Of a stretch of 64,000 nt of DNA, positions 3,706-55,838 are shown piece by piece. The stretch's first letter is position 1. Each line of letters begins with the position of its first letter. The translations under genes were made by a program, and so were the position numbers. This stretch comes from Nitrosopumilus sp. Its GTDB lineage: Archaea > Thermoproteota > Nitrososphaeria > Nitrososphaerales > Nitrosopumilaceae. The stretch is from NCBI GenBank assembly GCA_965205425.1, contig CBDBGZ010000004.1, positions 160,001-224,000 of the forward strand, given 5' to 3'. Below the pieces are notes generated by a model, which saw nothing but the letters and a program-made list of their open reading frames with translations, made no database searches and had not been told where the DNA came from.

Positions 3706-5024
3706 CAGTAGATAGGAAAGTGCTCAATTCGGATCAAAAAATAACGATCATTTTCTCAAATTATTCAGATAGAAAAAGCTTGATGAAAGTATGTCACTCC
3801 ATCAAATATGCATTGTACTTCATTTGATACCATGACACACCAAGGCGTGATACTATCTAAAGCATTTGAGATTATCACTAAAATAATGTACAATATCTTA
3901 TTGTTTCCATGCTCTAGTAAAAATAACTCACGGTTCCACAATGCAGACGCACATAATTCTATCATGTCATTGTGTTTGGGAAATTCATATTCTGAATCTG
4001 GATTAAAGAGACTGGCAATGGAATCAGATAATGCTTCTCCAACTGGTTTCATGGTTGAGAAAAATCATATCAAAAATATCACAAAAAACAATGCAAATTC
4101 AATTACATCGTTCACTGGATAGTACCATATCAAAATTACAAGAATTGGGAGTATTGGAACAACCAGTTACTGTAGCAATTGACAAACATCTAATCCCAAG
4201 ATATGACAAATTGCCAAACCATTCTTTAATAAAATCAAAATCTAAAAACAGTACTACTCATTTTGAGAGTTACTGCACCATGCAGTGCGTTGAAAAAAGA
4301 ATCAGGGCTCAATTAGGTTGTTATCCTTTGTATGACAACATATCAAATGCCGATTTTGTGCGTAAATTACTCTCTGATGGCATCAATAATGGAATCAAGA
4401 TTAAACTATTGCTAGTGGATAGGGAGTTTTTCACAGCTGGAACAATTTCAGAAATAAAACAAAGGAATTTAAAATTTCTAATGCCTGCAAAAAAGAATTC
4501 TCGAATCAAAGATGCAATTGTACAATACGTTAATGGAGATAGAAAGTCAATCTCGCCATACACAATAAAATCATCATCAGGACATGTAGAATCATTTAAT
4601 CTAGTTATTCTGCCAAACAAAAATGCAAGAAAAAAATCAGATATTATTGATCAGTATGTTGTGTTTGCAACAAACGTTTCACCAAAAGAAATATCATATA
4701 ACATACAAAACATTCCAACTGATTACAAGAAACGTTGGGGAATTGAAACAGGCTATGCATGTGTGGGAAGGTTCAGACCAAAAACCACCAGTTCAAACCA
4801 ATCCATAAGATTGTTGTATTTTTACTATTCATTGATTTTGTACAATGCATGGATAATTGCTAATTTGATTATCTCAGAAGAAACTAATGTAAAAAATTAC
4901 AAACCAATAATATCAATTGAAATTCTCAAATATTTCTTTGTAAAGATAATTATTCATTACTTTAGAAATAACAAAAATAATTATTTTCTAGAATGTGTAA
5001 TTTGATGTACTTTCCCATCTACTG
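3706..5024 (+). mobile_element. ISH3-like (IS4 superfamily) IS, copy 1; transposase split 3808-4122 / 4031-5005
   Basis: IRs cagtagataggaaagt / actttcccatctactg; AIDKH, LLVDREFF, YKKRWGIETGY motifs. Confidence 0.9.
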
Positions 5025-5229
5025 AATTAAAGATCGATCTTAAGATCGAAACATAATTTCTTATTGTTGTAAATTCAGATGTAAAATAGTGATTAGATCA
5101 CCAAAATGCACCAGCAGGGTCTAAAGTATAATTTCTATGGAAAATTATTCGTGTCCAAACCATACAATTTAAAAAAATGCAATTTGAAGAAGATCCATAT
5201 TTCATGATGTGTGTGCTAGATCACTAGAA

Positions 5230-5750
5230 TGCACCAGAACCGCAGTAGATGTGAAATCTAAACAGATCACAGGGATTGATATTACAGATGACAAGTCACA
5301 TGATTCAAAACATTTCATATCGCTAGTTGAGCAATCAAAACAGTTTGGCAATGTCACTAAAACTTTGGCTGATGGTGCATATGATACAAAGGATAATTTT
5401 TCATATCTGTATTATGATAATGATATTCTACCTGCAATTAAAACAAGAAAAAACTCATCAGTTGTAACTGATTGTTATCCTCGGAGAAAGTCCGTTTTGG
5501 CACAATTGTATAACTTGGATCTATGGAAGCTCAGCGTAAGCTATGGGGATAGATGGATTGTAGAGGGAGTATTCTCTGTATTCAAAAGAATATTTGGAGA
5601 GCATGTGACATCGCACAAGAGAGAAAACATGATTCATGAATTGAAAATGAAAGTTTGTCTGTACAATAAAATGATTGCAATGCAATAGAATCAGAAATGA
5701 TTTCAAAGCATCAAAGAGTGTTGATGGTTATTTGGGGTTGGGAAACAAAG
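5230..5750 (+). pseudogene. IS5-family (IS903-like) transposase, C-terminal remnant
   Basis: AVD..HDSK, LADGAYDT, YGDRWIVEGVFS motifs; N-terminus missing. Confidence 0.8.
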
Positions 5751-5763
5751 TAATTATTTTGAT

Positions 5764-5812
5764 AATAGAAAAAAGAGATTAGCGCGTTGGCCTAACCTAC
5801 CTAAGAACTAAC
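5764..5812 (-). ncRNA. putative small antisense RNA complementary to the anticodon arm of the tRNA-like gene at 5846-5916
   Basis: 5795-5810 is identical to 5870-5885; on the minus strand it is followed by a GGTTAG/CTAATC hairpin and a CTCTTTTTT tract; transcription is inferred. Confidence 0.5.
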
Positions 5813-5845
5813 ATTATTAGTTTAGTGTTTTTTAATATACTTTGT

Positions 5846-5916
5846 GGGCCTGTAGCGTGACGGTCACGTACCTACCTAAGAACTAGGAGATTTGGGTTCA
5901 ACTCCCAACAGATCCA
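5846..5916 (+). tRNA. atypical tRNA-like gene, anticodon AAG, Ala-type acceptor stem
   Basis: GGGCCTG/CAGATCC+A (G3:U70, C4xA69 mismatch); D arm GCGT-GACGGTC-ACGT; anticodon arm CCTAC-CTAAGAA-CTAGG; T arm TTGGG-TTCAACT-CCCAA. Confidence 0.75.
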
Positions 5917-5974
5917 CGACTTTTAATTATGATTTATGTCAGGTAATTACTTTCCCAAGTACTGATGTTATTAG

Positions 5975-6022
5975 AATAGAAAAAGAGATTAGCGCGCTGG
6001 CCTAACCTACGTGAAACCTAAC
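5975..6022 (-). ncRNA. putative small antisense RNA complementary to the anticodon arm of the tRNA-like gene at 6055-6125
   Basis: 6005-6020 is identical to 6079-6094; same hairpin and T-tract as in unit 1. Confidence 0.5.
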
Positions 6023-6054
6023 GTTATTAGTTCAGATTTTATAATAAACTTTGT

Positions 6055-6125
6055 GGGCCTGTAGCGTGACGGTCACGCACCTACGTGAAACCTAGGAGAT
6101 TTGGGTTCAACTCCCAACAGGTCCA
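6055..6125 (+). tRNA. atypical tRNA-like gene, anticodon GAA, Ala-type acceptor stem
   Basis: GGGCCTG/CAGGTCC+A with G3:U70; D arm GCGT-GACGGTC-ACGC; CCTAC-GTGAAAC-CTAGG; canonical T arm. Confidence 0.8.
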
Positions 6126-6133
6126 CACTATAA

Positions 6134-6301
6134 TTAAGGTAAAAATGGTTTATGTTTTGCAGGAAATGCATCTCGTTTTTCTAGAAATACTCGTTCTTTT
6201 TGTGAATACCTACATCTCACATTATTGGTTGGAATTAGACGTGAACCCATACGAATCATGATGAATTGTTTTTGTGGGTTTGAAGCTGTGAGTTTTACCA
6301 T
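6134..6301 (-). CDS. 55-aa ORF (MVKLTASNPQKQFIMIRMGSRL...) behind an IS66-type left end
   Basis: Read manually (ATG 6301, TAA 6134); sits where the IS66 transposase start would be. Confidence 0.35.
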   Translation of the reverse strand: MVKLTASNPQKQFIMIRMGSRLIPTNNVRCRYSQKERVFLEKRDAFPAKHKPFLP

Positions 6302-6612: not shown

Positions 6613-8109
6613 ATGATATCTGACAAGACAGTAATTTTTTGTGTCTTGATAATATCAATAGCAGTTGGTCTACAGCCTTTTGAGGATTTTTTTGACCAGT
6701 TAGCAGAAAATATTTTTTATAATTCTACAACTGATATTGGTTTGGAGTTTATTGCAAAACAAGACAATTTACGCAGTGAATTATTTGATAACATAAATAA
6801 TAATGATTATTTTTATGAAAAAATAAAACATACAGATGTATACAAAGCATTTATTGAGAAATACCCTCATTCAACTTTAACACTAAAGCATGCTGATAAT
6901 GATCTTTTAGAATTTGTTTTATACCATGTATACTCTAATGAACCACTTTCAGTTATTATGATAACCTTTGAGGTATCATTAGAGGAAGGTTTCATAAATA
7001 CTAGCTATGACTGCATCGGTGATAACAGTGCTAATATTTACTATAAAATGCCTACATTGTTTTGGATAAACTCTGATCGTTGTCTTCATACTATGAATAA
7101 TAAAATTACTTCATACCATAATGATATGCCAATATTTAATGATCATCATACAATGTTTTTCATCAATGATACTTTTGATGGTGATCTTGAGGGGTGGAAA
7201 TTTTGGTCAGGATTCCCAAAATATACCTTGGAAATAGATTCAAAAGCGGTACACCTTAGTGGAGATAATTTTGTAACCCATATAGGTTTGGAAAAAAATG
7301 TGAATGTATCTAACCTAACTAACAAAGAATTAATCTTATCATTTGATTATAGAGTAAAATCAGATACTTCAGATAGTACAGTCACCAATTCGAAACTCAT
7401 AATTTATGATTCAGATTACAATGAATTATTTAAAGAAAGTCTTGTATCAGGAGGAATAAAGGATACTGGTTGGCAAACATACCAAAAAAATATTTCAAAA
7501 TTCATCACAGGAGAAACACAAATCAAAATTGTTCTAAGTTTACAGGATAATTGGATATATAATCATAATCAACATGCTTGGTTCGATAATATTTACCTTA
7601 TACAAGATAATTCAAAAGAGATAATTTTTGATACGTTTGATGGTGATCTTGAGGGATGGTCTCTATGGACTGGTAAAATAGGTTATGAATTAATCCATGA
7701 TTCTCAAGCTGCAATGATTAGTGGAAATAGAGTATCATCTGTTAATGGCATACAAAAAACTGTAGATATCTCAGAATTAAAGAATAATTCTCTTACGTTA
7801 TCTTTTGATTATAGAGCAACTTCAAATTCTGCTAAAATTGATGTAACAAATGTTCTAGTTTCTATCTACGATGCAGAATCATACAAGCTGCTTTTTGAAC
7901 ATTATTTTATAAGTGGGGGAACAAAGGATACTGGTTGGCAAAAATATGAAAGAAATATTTATGAACATGTTAGGAACTCAGATAAAATTATTATCGCCTT
8001 ATCTAGTATAGATAATTCATCTGAAGATTCTAAACATAAGAACTGGTATGATAATATACAATTATCAGATAAAATTAGCATGGATCTAGATACTATCACA
8101 TATGAGTGA
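6613..8109 (+). CDS. secreted/membrane-anchored protein with two tandem carbohydrate-binding-like beta-sandwich repeats
   Basis: N-terminal hydrophobic segment; duplicated DTFDGDLEGW...LSFDYR...SGGxKDTGWQ...W(F/Y)DNI. Confidence 0.7.
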   Translation: MISDKTVIFCVLIISIAVGLQPFEDFFDQLAENIFYNSTTDIGLEFIAKQDNLRSELFDNINNNDYFYEKIKHTDVYKAFIEKYPHSTLTLKHADNDLLEFVLYHVYSNEPLSVIMITFEVSLEEGFINTSYDCIGDNSANIYYKMPTLFWINSDRCLHTMNNKITSYHNDMPIFNDHHTMFFINDTFDGDLEGWKFWSGFPKYTLEIDSKAVHLSGDNFVTHIGLEKNVNVSNLTNKELILSFDYRVKSDTSDSTVTNSKLIIYDSDYNELFKESLVSGGIKDTGWQTYQKNISKFITGETQIKIVLSLQDNWIYNHNQHAWFDNIYLIQDNSKEIIFDTFDGDLEGWSLWTGKIGYELIHDSQAAMISGNRVSSVNGIQKTVDISELKNNSLTLSFDYRATSNSAKIDVTNVLVSIYDAESYKLLFEHYFISGGTKDTGWQKYERNIYEHVRNSDKIIIALSSIDNSSEDSKHKNWYDNIQLSDKISMDLDTITYE

Positions 8110-8175: not shown

Positions 8176-8645
8176 TTATCCTAAAACACTCCAATACATC
8201 AAAATTGATGCAAGGTAAACAAATCCCAGACAAGTCTCATAGTTCTTCTCATATCTGATTGCAGTCCTATGAAATCCACACTTGAGCCATGCAAAGAATC
8301 TTTCAACAACAAATCTTGTTTTGTTGTAATTGTTTTTTAGATTTTTTGCTATGATGTATTTGAAATTACTCCTGTATGGAATATAACAATCCATTCTATG
8401 ACATCTGAGATAATATCTAATGTATTTTGCATCATACCCTTTGTCTGTATATGCTGACACTATTTCTTGTATGGAACCATCATCCAAATATTCTGAGATA
8501 TTTTCTAACACATCAATGAATTTAGTATTATCGTGTTGATTTGCAGAACTGGTTCTAATTGAGATTGGCAGTCCATTTGATTCTACAGCAACATGTATTT
8601 TTGTGCCTAAAATCTTCTTGAATCCATCACATCCTATTTCATCTC
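8176..8645 (-). pseudogene. IS5-family transposase, C-terminal part
   Basis: GTKIHVAVES, TDKGYD, RFVVERFFAWL, RYEK motifs. Confidence 0.8.
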
Positions 8646-9489: not shown

Positions 9490-10809
9490 CAGTAGATGGG
9501 AAAGTAACTCAAGTTACACATTCTAGAAAATAATTATTTTTGTTATTTCTAAAGTAATGAATAATTATCTTTACAAAGAAATATTTGAGAATTTCAATTG
9601 ATATTATTGGTTTGTGATTTTGTACATTAGTTTCTTCTGAGATAATCAAATTAGCAATTATCCATGCATTGTACAAAATCAAGGAATAGTAAAAATACAA
9701 CAATCTTATGGATTGGTTTGAACTGGTGGTTTTTGGTCTGAACCTTCCCACACATGCATAACCTGTTTCAATCCCCCAACGTTTCTTGTAATCAGTTGGA
9801 ATGTCCTGTATATTTTCAGATATTTCTTTTGGTGAAACGTTTGTTGCAAACACAGCATACTGATCAATAATATCTGATTTTTTTCTTGCATTTTTGTTTG
9901 GTAGAATAACTAGATTAAATGATTCTACATGTCCTGATGATGATTTTATTGTGTATGGCGAGATTGACTTTCTATCTCCATTAACGTATTGTAAAATGGC
10001 ATCTTTGATTCGAGAATTCTTTTTTGCAGGCATTAGAAATTTTAAATTCCTTTGTTTTATTTCTGAAATTGTTCCAGCTGTGAAAAACTCCCTATCCACT
10101 AGCAATAGTTTAATCTTGATTCCATTATTGATGCCATCAGAGAGTAATTTACGCACAAAATCGGCATTTGATATGTTGTCATACAAAGGATAACAACCTA
10201 ATTGAGCCCTGATTCTTTTTTCAACGCACTGCATGGTGCAGTAACTCTCAAAATGAGTAGTACTGTTTTTAGATTTTGATTTTATTAAAGAATGATTTGG
10301 CAATTTGTCATATCTTGGGATTAGATGTTTGTCAATTGCTACAGTAACTGGTTGTTCCAATACTCCCAATTCTTGTAATTTTGATATGGTACTATCCAGT
10401 GAACGATGTAATTGAATTTGCATTGTTTTTTGTGATATTTTTGATATGATTTTTCTCAACCATGAAACCAGTTGGAGAAGCATTATCTGATTCCATTGCC
10501 AGTCTCTTTAATCCAGATTCAGAATATGAATTTCCCAAACACAATGACATGATAGAATTATGTGCGTCTGCATTGTGGAACCGTGAGTTATTTTTACTAG
10601 AGCATGGAAACAATAAGATATTGTACATTATTTTAGTGATAATCTCAAATGCTTTAGATAGTATCACGCCTTGGTGTGTCATGGTATCAAATGAAGTACA
10701 ATGCATATTTGATGGAGTGACATACTTTCATCAAGCTTTTTCTATCTGAATAGATTGATTGAATAATTGATAGTTTTTGATCTAAATTGAGTTACTTTCC
10801 CATCTACTG
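9490..10809 (-). mobile_element. ISH3-like IS, copy 2 (inverted)
   Basis: IRs cagtagatgggaaagtaactc at both ends; transposase near-identical to copy 1, same split. Confidence 0.9.
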
Positions 10810-11356: not shown

Positions 11357-12497
11357 GAGACATGGGCATAACTAATTCTAATTTTTGAGTCAATTCTCAA
11401 ATTATTCAAATAGAAAAAGCTAAGGATCTTATCATGTTTTGTTCATTGTAATGTCAAAACAAATGAAAATCCCTAACAAGATTCTATCGGAATCATTTCT
11501 TATTGGTATTTTGTATTTGGTGGGAATGTTGTCTTTGTATGAAGAGATACTGAAACCTGGTAGACCGTACGTATACTCTACAATTCTAATGGTACAGCTG
11601 TCCATCATAAAATCTTGGATGAGAATTCCTAGTAACAATACATTACATTATTTCCTTTCAATCAAACCTTCCAATGACAAACTGCTCAAGGTTTGCAAAT
11701 TAACTCAAATTCCAGACAGAAGAACTATTGACAGACGATTTCAATTTCTACCAATTAGTGACATGATTAGTACCATGGGCAACAAATTCATCTCAGAGGG
11801 ATTGGTGGAAAATGTTTCAGCATCAGGGGATAGTTCAATGCTAAAAGCAGATGGTCCAGTATGGCACAAATCAGACATAAGGAACAATCGTCTACCAATC
11901 CCAGGAATTGATACTGATGCAAAATGGGGTTTTTCAAAATCAAAGGGTTGGATATTTGGATACAAACTGCACATGAGTTGCAGTACTGGAAAACTGATAG
12001 TTCCATTGTCTGCTGATGTCTCAACTGCAAATGTTTCTGATGGTAAAATGTATGAAACGTTAGTCAAACCACTTGCAGGACTGGTTGAAAATATTTTATG
12101 TGATGTGCCATATGATGATAAATCATTATATCAGTTTAGTGATGAGAGACATTTGAGATTGATTTGTTCTATCAAAATATATCCATCAACACCGCCAGAG
12201 CGAATCAAACTTGCAGATTTTTATAATTCTGTACAAGGTCAAGAGTTGTACTCACAAAGAAAAGTCTCAATTGAACCTTTATTTGAAATATTCAAAGATA
12301 CGTTCAACATTAGAACTGTACATGTGAAAGGATTTGACAACGTGAAATCATTTGTATTGGTTTGTGTGTTGGTGTATCAACTTGTAGTATATTACAACTG
12401 TATAATTGGAGCAGAAAATCCAAGAACTGTAAAGAGAATGCTTTGCTGTTAGGAAATGACTGAGAGTTATTTTTGTAAATAATTATGCCCAAGTCTC
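11357..12497 (+). mobile_element. DDE IS (IS982/ISNCY-like), transposase 11439-12452
   Basis: IR gagacatgggcataa / ttatgcccaagtctc; 8-bp TSD aaatatgt; DSS, GYKLH, RKVSIEPLF motifs. Confidence 0.9.
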
Positions 12498-13860
12498 AAA
12501 TATGTTTAGTCGCTTGGAAGCTTTAGCATATTCCGTTCTTATGCTGTCTGGGAATAATTTTGCTTGTTTTTTGTAAGAGTTTTTTGGTTTGTGTCCCACC
12601 ACTTCTTCTACTACATCTTCACGGCAATTACAATCAGTTAAAACAGATACCAATACATCACGAATCTCATGTGAATCCATATTGTAGATATTTTTTTCGT
12701 TGGCAGTCTTACCGATTATTTTTAATATTCCTGCTCTTGTGGCAATTCTATGAAAAGCATGACTTATCCACCAATCAGTAATTGGTTTTCCAAATTTGTT
12801 TAAAAATATTGGTTCTCCAATTTGTATATCTTGTTTTGTCTGCTTTTTTCTGAAATCAAGATACCTCTGTAATTCATAAACTGCATCTCTATCAAGACAT
12901 CCAATATGGTTGTAATCTACTTTGATTCTTACAAGGGTGATTGGTACAGGGCATTTATTGAGATCCCATGAATTGTAATTTTCAGAACCAAAATATTTGA
13001 CTAGTTGTTCCAATGCTTCAAAATTGAATCTATCGGCCAATGTTGCTCGGTCCAATCCCCTATGAAATTTACATAAAAATAACGCTTTTTCCATTATTGA
13101 GGGTTTACCGACAGTCAAAAATTTCATCAAATCAGATAATGTCATACTTTGTTCTTCTATGGTATTGTTGTTTGTGATTGTCGGATCATATTGAAAATTA
13201 ATCTCTTGTTCATTTTTTTCAAAATATGATACTATTGCAGATTTGATCAACGTTAATGAACTTGCTTTAAAATTTGAATGTTTTTCATCAAGAAGATATT
13301 GTTTTATGATTCGTATGATTGTCTTTTTTTCTATGAATGGTCCTTCTAAAATGTTTAAAATTTCCTCCACATTTTGAAATTGTCTATATTCAGTTTTTTG
13401 CGTGAATGCACTTTCATCAATACGATGCAGAGTTTGAATTTTGAATCTCCTTTCATTATTTTCAATGTCTGGTGATGTAAGCCATTTGTTAAAATTCCAT
13501 AATTGACGTAAATATGCTTTTTTGGTACTATTTTGTGCTGTTTTGGCATTTTTTTGTCTATTTCCCCTTAATTGAGATTGCCAGTATTGAATTGATTTTA
13601 TCTGTATAAACCATGTAGGAATATGTGTATCATCAATTCTTTCAACCATATTGTTGTCTTTGGCAAATTTCATCATTTTTTGACTTTTCAGCAATGCACT
13701 TTCTTTTTTATTATTACATATTTTTAAAAGGATTTTTTTATTTTTCTCAAATAATGAATTTGCTGTAACTGTTTCGCCAATTTTCGGGAAACATATTTTT
13801 TCAAATGTCATTGGAAATTCTTGATTATCTGTAATAACTGTATAGAGGTATGACTGTTTC

Positions 13861-14889
13861 TGTTGTATCCCAAAATCAGTTCGTCCCTTATTTGACATCG
13901 TATTCTTCTCCTGTCTGCTCATCAATAACTCTTGTTCCTTTCTCTGGCATCTTTCTTGCATATGCCTTTGCAGGGGTCTCAAGATTATCCCAGTCAAGTG
14001 ACATGTGTGGCTTTATGTGATTGTACCAGTGGACCAGCTCATCAATGGTGCCAAACCATTTCTGCTTTCTCTGAATCTCGCCGTGAAATCTTTCGAGCTT
14101 GCCATTGGTTTGAGGATGGTTCACTCTTGCCATGATATGCTTTATCTCTAATTTTACCAGTTCTTGCTCAAACTGGGATGCTCCTTTTCTCTTGTATTCT
14201 GATTGGTTTGCATAAAACTGGGAGCCATGATCAGTTAGAATTGATGCAGGCCTACCGTGCTTTGCAATTGCCTCATGTAATACTACAAGTGCGTTATCTG
14301 TTGTTGCCTCTGCAAACACTCCATGAGAAACGATAAACCTTGATGCGTCATCCTGGTAGCATAAGAACCATCTGCCATCATCTAGCTTCTTCCAGTCAGT
14401 ATGCCACATGGAGTTTGAATATGTCCTCTCGTATCTAACCCACTTTCGTCTTCTCCTCTTCTTTGGCTGAGCTTCTGCCAACCCTTCATCTCTCATAATT
14501 TTGTGTATGGTATTGTGAGGTATGTGTGTTCCAGTAGTATCAATTATTTTCTCCAAGAATACTGCAGAACACCTGAACTTTTCAAATGCTGACTGGACAG
14601 TCTGTACCATCTGCTCTGTGATTATTCCCTTTGGCCTTCCAGGCTTGCCTAGAATCGGAACTGCACCAGTACGGCTATACCGTGAGTAGAGTTTCTGCAC
14701 CCACCGAACAGATATCTTCATGGATGAGGCTACGTCTGCGTTCTTGGCACCATCCTCTTTTGACTTGATTATCCAGGATATCTGGATTGGATCTAATTTT
14801 TGCATAATCTTGTGATTCTTTCCTCTTTTCCAAACGTATCTTGACTTTAGTCTGGAAATAATGGGGTGAACTAATTTGAGGATAATAGA
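13861..14889 (-). mobile_element. IS481-like IS type A, transposase 13888-14805
   Basis: WHTDWK, DDASR, TDHGSQF, QTNGKLER; 15-bp direct repeat aggtatgactgtttc on both flanks. Confidence 0.9.
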
Positions 14890-55711: not shown

Positions 55712-55838
55712 CCCGTGGTAGCTCAGCCTGGTAGAGCTTCCGGCTGTAGTTGTTGGCTTTAGATGGCTGACCGAAAAACAGCATATCAGGCATACAGAAA
55801 CCGGGTTGTCGGTGGTTCAATTCCGCCCCGCGGGACCA
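55712..55838 (+). tRNA. tRNA-Tyr(GTA) with a 50-nt intron at 37/38 (55750-55799), CCA encoded
   Basis: CCCGTGG/CCGCGGG acceptor (C1-G72, A73), anticodon GTA 55746-55748, BHB helix CTGT/ACAG. Confidence 0.93.

Follow-up and report, generated by a model that had tools for sequence, protein, structure and literature searches.

Near the beginning of a 64,000-nucleotide (nt) stretch of contig CBDBGZ010000004.1 of Nitrosopumilus sp. lie two tandem units, each with a transfer RNA (tRNA)-like gene and, ahead of it, a copy of part of the anticodon arm of that same gene. The question raised by this locus is why the copy should change together with the anticodon from one unit to the other. The analysis presented here points to a second gene in each unit, predicted to encode a small RNA of ~45 nt that would pair with the anticodon arm of its neighbour, and it further suggests that the neighbour combines the identity marks of a tRNA for alanine with the anticodon of another amino acid. 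All coordinates are positions within this stretch, hereafter the window, and the genome of origin comprises 2,195,935 bases.

Anticodon-arm copies in two tandem units

An earlier reading of the same DNA, made from its letters (hereafter the sequence-only reading), had described two near-identical units that differ mainly in the anticodon loop. Alignment of the units, ~210 base pairs (bp) each, gave the same picture: the mean column identity is 86%, and the differences concentrate in the anticodon loop and in the stretch ~35 nt upstream of each tRNA-like gene. In this upstream stretch, as that reading had also noticed, unit 1 carries an exact 16-nt copy of its own anticodon arm (5795-5810 = 5870-5885) and unit 2 an exact 16-nt copy of its own (6005-6020 = 6079-6094). 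For each 16-mer, these two sites are the only ones in the whole genome, and no 12-mer of either one recurs at any other genome site. Because unitigs from four DNA runs of two studies (one of these runs may be the source sample itself) bridge the units, spanning 5771-5906, 5883-6009 and 5981-6118/6164 with 0-1 differences, the duplication is genuine DNA and not the assembly artefact that had been considered earlier. Both tRNA-like genes exceed the gathering score of 29 of the Rfam tRNA model (RF00005), with 46.8 bits for gene 1 and 49.2 bits for gene 2; the mismatches of gene 1 are C4·A69 in the acceptor stem and C31·C39. The positions of the features are collected in Table 1.

Guide and target change together across relatives

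A BLAST search with unit 1 recovered a third copy in the same genome (C9:454069-454222), and three further genomes of the genus also proved to hold copies; in each case the arm was changed and the upstream copy was changed along with it. Among all 53 tRNAs called by ARAGORN in the genome, such arm copies are confined to the cassette family. A second class in the window's genome comprises four more tRNA-like genes of 72-75 nt (anticodon GTC in three, GAA in one), in which the reverse complement of the arm lies ~35-55 nt downstream on the same strand. Taken together, BLAST, the ARAGORN scan and pattern scans gave 23 low-GC cassettes with 21 distinct targets; the copy, hereafter the guide, tracks the anticodon arm in all 23, with contiguous pairing runs of 10-18 nt that always cross the anticodon loop. 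The sequence-only reading had named homologs without such tracking as its own refutation, and its claim that copy and anticodon change together held throughout this set.

When the guides of 31 distinct cassettes were compared with tRNA positions 27-41 (465 cells), 411 cells were Watson-Crick, 26 G·U, 10 A·C and 18 other, the non-Watson-Crick cells sitting mostly at the ends of this interval. Transition differences compatible with G·U pairing outnumber those of the A·C type (26 vs 10; binomial p 0.011, a value overstated as the cassettes are related). In a 14x14 matrix of duplex energies the mean was -23.3 kcal/mol for cognate and -11.1 kcal/mol for non-cognate combinations, and every guide of the window's genome prefers its own neighbour, the D2 guide being near-equal on D1 (-18.6 vs -19.7). 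No comparable site was found for the guides of the genome on the canonical Phe, Asp, Leu and Ala tRNAs (best -19.9 vs -28.6 for the cognate). Pairing of each RNA with its own tRNA only, as had been proposed from the letters, agrees with these energies and with the 16-mers having no further site in the genome. None of the seven intact tRNA-like genes of the window's genome stands without a partner, and at two loci (L022 and L023) orphan small-RNA modules adjoin a tRNA that is truncated or absent. We consider it highly probable that the pair of small RNA and tRNA is real and co-evolving.

A predicted separate gene for the small RNA

Archaeal promoters follow a spacing rule, and transcription in archaea terminates at oligo-T. 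Read on the minus strand, unit 1 shows in order the TATA-like box TATATTAA (5839-5832), 21 nt, the guide, a hairpin GGTTAGGCC..GCGCTAATC (5797-5777) and CTCTTTTTTCTATT; unit 2 shows TTTATTAT (6048-6041), 20 nt, the guide, a hairpin (6007-5987) and CTCTTTTTCTATT. The minus-strand order of TATA-like stretch, copy, hairpin and oligo-T described earlier is thus present in both units. Read antisense, the module has the same structure in both classes of cassettes, with a TATA-like box, a spacer of 19-25 nt, the arm-complementary guide, a hairpin and at least five T. A hairpin followed by T5 or more was found in 15 of 15 modules, and the fold read in the antisense sense was the more stable one in 11 of them. 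The sequence of the hairpin varies by subfamily (e.g. GGTTAGGCC..GCGCTAATC, TTAGTTC..GAACTAG, AGGCTA..TAGCCT) and its position is kept.

Four placements of the module relative to the tRNA were found: divergent upstream, as in the window; tandem downstream; convergent downstream, on the opposite strand (one low-GC cassette); and upstream on the same strand, in some bacterial cassettes. Since the internal order remains constant while place and strand change, the module is best read as an independent gene for a ~45-nt RNA, which would be antisense to the tRNA in every placement. The minus-strand RNA of about this length predicted by the sequence-only reading is favoured by these placements, by the G·U-biased differences and by the kept place of the hairpin.

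The tRNA-like genes appear to have TATA-like boxes of their own, ATTATTAG and GTTATTAG, which share their position with the boxes of canonical tRNA genes in the same genome, located ~38 to 25 nt ahead of the mature 5' end. Both small-RNA boxes fall between the tRNA-like gene's own box and its 5' end, so that the two predicted promoters of each unit interleave and only one of them may initiate at a time. In the small RNAs no conserved reading frame was seen by eye. A split or two-piece transfer-messenger RNA (tmRNA) was considered as a candidate and ruled out, as the predicted small RNAs of the window stop at oligo-T without a conserved frame.

Identity of the tRNA-like genes

An alignment of 21 sequences forms a standard cloverleaf with 7/5 acceptor and T stems. 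Its paired cells amount to 92%, vs 72% in shuffled alignments and 36-47% with the partners slid, and compensatory changes occur in 15 of the 21 pairs. This pattern indicates that the tRNA-like genes encode functional RNAs under structural selection and are not pseudogenes. In the acceptor stem, pairs 4-7 covary and 3:70 is G·U in all 21 sequences; 49:65 also covaries (UA 10, CG 6), backing the 7/5 arrangement. Among the 53 tRNAs of the window's genome, G3·U70 is present in ten, namely three tRNA-Ala and the seven cassette tRNAs, all of them with A73, and is lacking in the other 43. The 23 low-GC cassettes carry the anticodons GAA (10), AAG (7), GTC (5) and GAT (1), and the alanine anticodon NGC in none.

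An archaeal tRNA-Leu needs a long variable arm, which is absent from the window genes (72 nt, with a variable region of 4 nt); the canonical tRNA-Leu of this genome measure 86-88 nt. Both window genes carry instead the tRNA-Ala identity set of G3·U70 and A73, and both depart from tRNA-Ala in decoding, with AAG and GAA in place of NGC. The G3:U70 pair is the main determinant for alanyl-tRNA synthetase (AlaRS) in all three domains (PMC6451123); the enzyme depends on this pair and disregards the anticodon, and in yeast growth was slowed by 36 of 60 tRNA-Ala anticodon variants (PMC10543346). Because G3·U70 and A73 are present and AlaRS does not read the anticodon, the cassette tRNAs are predicted to be charged with alanine while reading Phe, Leu, Asp or Ile codons. 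The sequence-only reading, whose minus-strand small RNA is supported by the present results, had missed this identity set and likewise the occurrence of cassettes in bacteria.

Related cassettes in public collections

A scan of public genomes, viral contigs and metagenomes for an alanine-type acceptor end gave at least 224 distinct hits, which were classified with ARAGORN and examined for a contiguous run of at least 12 nt that lies within 200 nt of the gene and is complementary to a 19-nt interval at the anticodon arm. Among the matches listed, such a run accompanies 2 of 145 cloverleaf genes with an alanine anticodon, 19 of 25 with a non-alanine anticodon, and 27 of 54 genes of ~69-70 nt in which no cloverleaf was called and the D arm is missing. 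For the two cloverleaf classes (170 among the matches listed) the Fisher test gave 5e-18, a value in which relatives are not independent. Contiguous-run counts were adopted in place of duplex energy because the latter discriminates poorly in GC-rich genomes, as 51 of the 145 tRNA-Ala among the matches listed reached -18 kcal/mol.

The GC-rich cloverleaf cassettes, whose anticodons include GTC, GAG, CAT, AAC and CCT, are built in bacterial style, with a TTGACA-17-TATAAT-like promoter ahead of the guide and a hairpin terminator behind it. The ~70-nt hits without a cloverleaf stay under the gathering score of the Rfam tmRNA model, which they match at its two ends only, and one of them sits on a 223-kb contig titled Patescibacteria. 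In such ~70-nt bacterial RNAs (L042, L188, L209, L233, L192, L241, L278 and others) a T arm accompanies the alanine-type acceptor stem, the D arm is missing, and a single long hairpin bears a loop resembling an anticodon loop. Behind each of them come a consensus-like sigma-70 promoter, a small RNA with complementarity to the hairpin (often also to the 5' region) and a terminator. At three bacterial loci from metagenomes (L252, L254 and L247) the small-RNA gene precedes the tRNA-like gene on the same strand, and an open reading frame (ORF) that by eye resembles an integrase N-terminus begins a few bases 3' of the tRNA-like gene, as at genomic-island borders.

A scan of genome contigs with a loose pattern gave mostly bacterial tRNA-Ala among the matches listed. 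In IMG/VR the tRNA pattern returned 30 loci, by eye mostly ordinary phage tRNA-Ala, with a cassette in none of them, and two terminator-type patterns returned 133 viral loci with a family-like tRNA in none, both searches being limited by their patterns, so that absence from viruses does not follow. A distant BLAST of 5753-6130 in plasmids and phages gave no match, from which absence likewise does not follow.

Genomic context and distribution

The tRNA pattern matches 4 of 61 sampled genomes of the genus, with seven copies in the window's genome, one in each of the other three and no alanine anticodons, and unit-length BLAST matches to unit 1 occur in 3 of 300 other genomes of the family. The six cassette loci compared in the window's genome all lie among copies of insertion sequences (IS). 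Only these IS copies recur near them (IS630-like, DDE_Tnp_1 and IS110-like, family names being read from the sequences), and no dedicated partner protein gene was found near the six loci.

Table 1. Features of the two units and their immediate surroundings in the window.
Feature	Position	Strand	Description
Truncated DDE transposase ORF	5209..5688	+	Immediately upstream of the cassettes
Predicted small RNA 1	5766..5811	-	~45 nt; guide 5811-5795, hairpin 5797-5777, U-run from 5774
TATA-like box of tRNA-like gene 1	5813..5820	+	ATTATTAG; putative, 25 nt ahead of G1
TATA-like box of small RNA 1	5832..5839	-	TATATTAA; putative, 21 nt ahead of guide
tRNA-like gene 1	5846..5917	+	72 nt; ARAGORN tRNA-Leu(aag); G3·U70, A73; no long variable arm
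Target 1, anticodon arm (tRNA positions 26-42)	5870..5886	+	Complementary to small RNA 1
Predicted small RNA 2	5977..6021	-	~45 nt; guide 6021-6005, hairpin 6007-5987, U-run from 5984
TATA-like box of tRNA-like gene 2	6023..6030	+	GTTATTAG; putative, 24 nt ahead of G1
TATA-like box of small RNA 2	6041..6048	-	TTTATTAT; putative, 20 nt ahead of guide
tRNA-like gene 2	6055..6126	+	72 nt; ARAGORN tRNA-Phe(gaa); G3·U70, A73; acceptor stem intact; C31·C39 mismatch
Target 2, anticodon arm	6079..6095	+	Complementary to small RNA 2
Decayed third unit	~6170..6290	+	Guide/TATA remnant (ACCTAC..CACATTATTGGTT) and initial ~20 nt of a tRNA-like gene (TTTGTGGGTTTGAAGC)

The only ORFs of at least 50 amino acids (aa) overlapping the units, 6085-6261(+) and 6134-6301(-), cross tRNA-like gene 2 or the remnant of the third unit. 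Directly 3' of tRNA-like gene 1, at 5921-5930, stands TTTTAATTAT, which resembles the small-RNA box of the second class, (G/A)TTTAATTAG, has no guide after it and may be the relic of a downstream module. Because the reads of other copies or strains have a different flank from ~5753 on, an insertion sequence probably abuts the cassette at this point. DDE transposase ORFs were found at 4031-5005, 5209-5688, 8176-8511, 9509-10483 and 11439-12452. Two of them, 4031-5005 (+) and 9509-10483 (-), are ORFs of 324 aa that flank the cassettes on both sides in inverted orientation, and each is 97-99% identical to further copies in the genome. At 2066-2897 lies an IS1595-type gene that is broken into two frames, and the 498-aa ORF 6613-8109 (+), beside the cassettes, gave no match in Pfam, PHROG or NCBIfam.

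Elsewhere in the window, an Rfam tRNA match of 124 nt (44.1 bits) at 55712-55835 (+), where ARAGORN makes no call, is probably an intron-containing tRNA. Three further tRNA-like genes of the genome, of 89-92 nt and with CGTCAGG...CCTGACG ends, combine a long variable arm with the anticodon GAA (C8:120792-120883(-), C9:254931-255020(-) and C9:901280-901368(+)). A long arm on a Phe anticodon suggests a Ser- or Leu-type identity and hence another possible mis-decoder. No complementary neighbour was found within 500 nt of these three genes, the runs of 8-11 nt being at chance level; one of the three lies 430 nt from a cassette.

Proposed mechanism and the points that weigh against it

The analysis described above establishes how the cassettes are built and distributed, that guide and target co-vary, and that the tRNAs carry the identity marks and a bias in their anticodons. 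We propose that each unit is a cassette of two RNA genes. Of these, gene A would be a sound tRNA with the alanine marks G3·U70 and A73 and a foreign anticodon (AAG in the first unit, GAA in the second, GUC or GAU in cassettes elsewhere). AlaRS, which ignores the anticodon, would charge it with alanine, and alanine would then be put at Leu (CUU) or Phe (UUY) codons, leading to protein damage across the proteome. Gene B, with a TATA-like box of its own and an end made of a hairpin and oligo-U, would produce the ~45-nt RNA, whose initial 13-18 nt could base-pair along the partner's anticodon arm, from its 5' strand through the loop into part of its 3' strand, and in this way block decoding by the partner. 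The frequent 31·39 mismatch may leave effectively a 9-nt loop, which would make it easier for the guide to invade. A stable tRNA held in check by a short and presumably short-lived antisense RNA would follow the logic of addiction or of abortive infection, and toxin-antitoxin logic would also suit the mobile context of the cassettes, their multiple orthogonal copies and their signs of decay.

To this full mechanism, in which alanine charging, harmful mis-decoding and an antisense antidote form a toxin-antitoxin-like cassette on mobile DNA, we would give an even chance. More tentatively, and with somewhat less than an even chance, the cassettes could belong to a hitherto unrecognised class of poison-antidote modules that consist of RNA alone, occur across domains, are mobile and have diversified orthogonally, each made of an alanine-accepting, mis-decoding tRNA and an antisense RNA that masks its anticodon arm. 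In bacteria (candidate phyla and others) the poison would be a ~70-nt, tmRNA-like mini-tRNA without a D arm, and mobile elements would carry the cassettes in both ammonia-oxidising archaea and diverse bacteria.

Several points weigh against the mechanism. Transcription, alanylation, mis-decoding, toxicity and the relative half-lives of the RNAs are steps that we infer from the sequence. Transcription of both genes is predicted, with archaeal promoters called by eye against the tRNA genes of the window's genome, and the hairpins of the window, taken on their own, are not significantly stable (z -1.4 and -0.26). Alanylation is predicted from the identity marks alone, and tRNAs with GAA and A73 could instead be charged by phenylalanyl-tRNA synthetase (PheRS), harmlessly. 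The pattern used for the public collections fixes GGG...TCCAC, and G3·U70 is independent only for the ten members found by BLAST and ARAGORN, all of them G·U. Positions 31:39 are unpaired in 12 of the 21 aligned sequences, and this mismatch, together with C33 in some GUC loops and with A34, may make the tRNAs poor decoders; in unit 1, the C4·A69 mismatch may render the tRNA inactive or impaired. Moreover, 6 of the 25 non-alanine tRNAs among the matches listed have no run of at least 12 nt within 200 nt, and the mobile-element context draws on weak domain matches.

Alternative explanations

The alternative that survives best, which we nevertheless consider unlikely, accepts the pair as real and denies that the tRNA is a poison. 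The tRNA would be a conditional decoder (in regulated or adaptive mistranslation, or as a tRNA supplied by the element) or an alanyl-RNA with a non-translational role, such as binding AlaRS, and the small RNA would be its switch. The anatomy and the co-variation fit this explanation equally well, weak anticodon stems could imply a low decoding activity, and allo-tRNAs with G3:U70 and non-alanine anticodons have been proposed as missense suppressors and/or regulatory RNAs (PMC5389517). Seven mutually orthogonal copies in a single IS-rich genome, however, are better explained by a selfish module than by a housekeeping regulator, and the same direction is indicated by the patchy distribution (4 of 61 genomes) and by the orphan small-RNA modules beside broken tRNAs.

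A role of the pair in the replication, copy number or integration of a mobile element, where the tRNA-like structure would be a primer or recognition structure with its antisense inhibitor, or else a portable integration site, seems improbable to us. Two contexts speak for it. In one relative a cassette lies between core genes and a 590-aa VirB4/TraD-like ATPase (weak domain match), which it abuts at the core-gene border, and a truncated second cassette adjoins a fragment of the same ATPase gene; in the three bacterial loci mentioned above, the integrase-like ORF starts directly after the tRNA-like gene. Yet such a role leaves unexplained G3·U70 and A73, the full cloverleaf, the geometry of the anticodon loop and the exclusion of alanine anticodons, and in the window two intact tandem cassettes and a remnant stand with no replication gene adjoining.

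The sequence-only reading had offered two further possibilities, that the upstream copy is part of a pre-tRNA leader, acting as a same-sense decoy, or a gene-conversion template for anticodon switching. In the window the copy is indeed same-sense and a mere 35 nt upstream of the tRNA. In at least ten other low-GC cassettes and in bacterial ones, however, it is reverse-complemented, downstream and provided with a promoter of its own, and the G·U-biased differences are not predicted by conversion. Besides, because the tRNA's own TATA-like box is downstream of the copy, the copy should lie outside the tRNA transcript. These results contradict both possibilities, which we regard as very improbable.

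Hardly more credit, and in our view slightly less, is due to the explanation that the copies are attachment (att) scars of integration into a tRNA gene, or products of chance duplication. Anticodon loops are frequent targets of integrases, IS abound in the region, and there is a weak tyrosine-recombinase match at 12483-13997. Against this, the repeat comprises the arm without the tRNA 3' half, the copies are 59 nt apart, the inverted orientation of the second class cannot come from integration, and 21 distinct pairs co-vary; no excision joints between the two copies were found in the DNA unitigs of the four runs. As a candidate in its own right, an att repeat at a tRNA gene, which must include the 3' part of the tRNA and flank an element, was rejected, as only 16 nt of the arm are repeated.

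Least probable of all is that the small RNA directs 2'-O-methylation of the anticodon arm as a C/D-box guide (archaeal C/D small RNAs do target this region of tRNAs), since neither predicted small RNA contains a C box (RTGATGA) or a D box (CTGA), Rfam searches at the 5764-6126 cassettes (E up to 1) gave tRNA only, plus a tmRNA_permuted noise match (E 0.55), and the guide of 13-18 nt lies at the extreme 5' end.

Significance and comparison with known systems

If the proposed poison-antidote mechanism is true, a tRNA itself serves as a selfish or defensive weapon, and mistranslation is an evolved effector and not an error. The cassettes would add a type of toxin-antitoxin system that needs no protein, would provide the first dedicated natural "anti-tRNA" RNAs, with orthogonal tRNA/antisense pairs usable in synthetic biology, and would explain the persistence of wrong-identity tRNA genes in genomes and metagenomes. 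Annotation pipelines now label the cassette genes as ordinary tRNA-Phe, tRNA-Leu or tRNA-Asp. Even without toxicity, a co-evolving small RNA against the anticodon arm of a tRNA, in archaea and bacteria, would be a new regulatory principle that is directly testable. In open-access papers and bioRxiv we found no description of a small RNA directed against a tRNA anticodon arm and, as far as found there, no tRNA toxin with an RNA antidote.

With regard to the tRNA, the cassettes resemble the mistranslating tRNA-Ala variants (PMC10543346) and the allo-tRNAs (PMC5389517) in joining an alanine identity to a non-alanine anticodon; these RNAs mis-insert alanine and can slow growth, and allo-tRNAs with G3:U70 have been observed near toxin-antitoxin and transposon genes (PMC5389517; reviewed in PMC7609411). 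The yeast variants, in contrast, were engineered (PMC10543346), and allo-tRNAs have 8/4 or 9/3 acceptor and T stems (PMC5389517), an arrangement not found in the cassette tRNAs, which are 7/5; in the allo-tRNA paper (PMC5389517) the word "antisense" has 0 occurrences. In the type VIII system CreT/CreA, a tRNA of the host is sequestered by CreT, which Cascade and a CRISPR-like guide jointly repress (PMC8501985). The cassettes share with it an RNA toxin (here putative) and an RNA antitoxin, an action on translation through tRNA biology and the occurrence in archaea; they differ in that the putative toxin is itself a tRNA and its masking is predicted to occur by direct pairing, which was computed in silico.

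The tRNA-like domain of tmRNA has G3·U70, alanine charging and GGG...TCCAC ends, and the cassette tRNAs share these marks, their charging being predicted. Unlike tmRNA, the window RNAs have a true anticodon arm and no tag reading frame, and they gave no Rfam tmRNA match above threshold. In the ColE1 plasmid, RNA I is an antisense RNA encoded in cis across the replication primer RNA II. There, as in the cassettes, a short antisense RNA reads the loops of a structured RNA and sequence variants set specificity groups; the cassette guide, in contrast, is separately encoded and aimed at a tRNA. Finally, in type I toxin-antitoxin systems such as hok/sok, an antisense RNA acts against the mRNA of a small toxic peptide. 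The cassettes depart from these systems in their target, which is a tRNA with no ORF and thus no small-protein toxin. The features of a type I antitoxin are nevertheless present at the level of the sequence: a short antisense RNA with a predicted promoter and terminator of its own is complementary to the product of the neighbouring gene, with which it would pair, in orthogonal copies associated with mobile elements.

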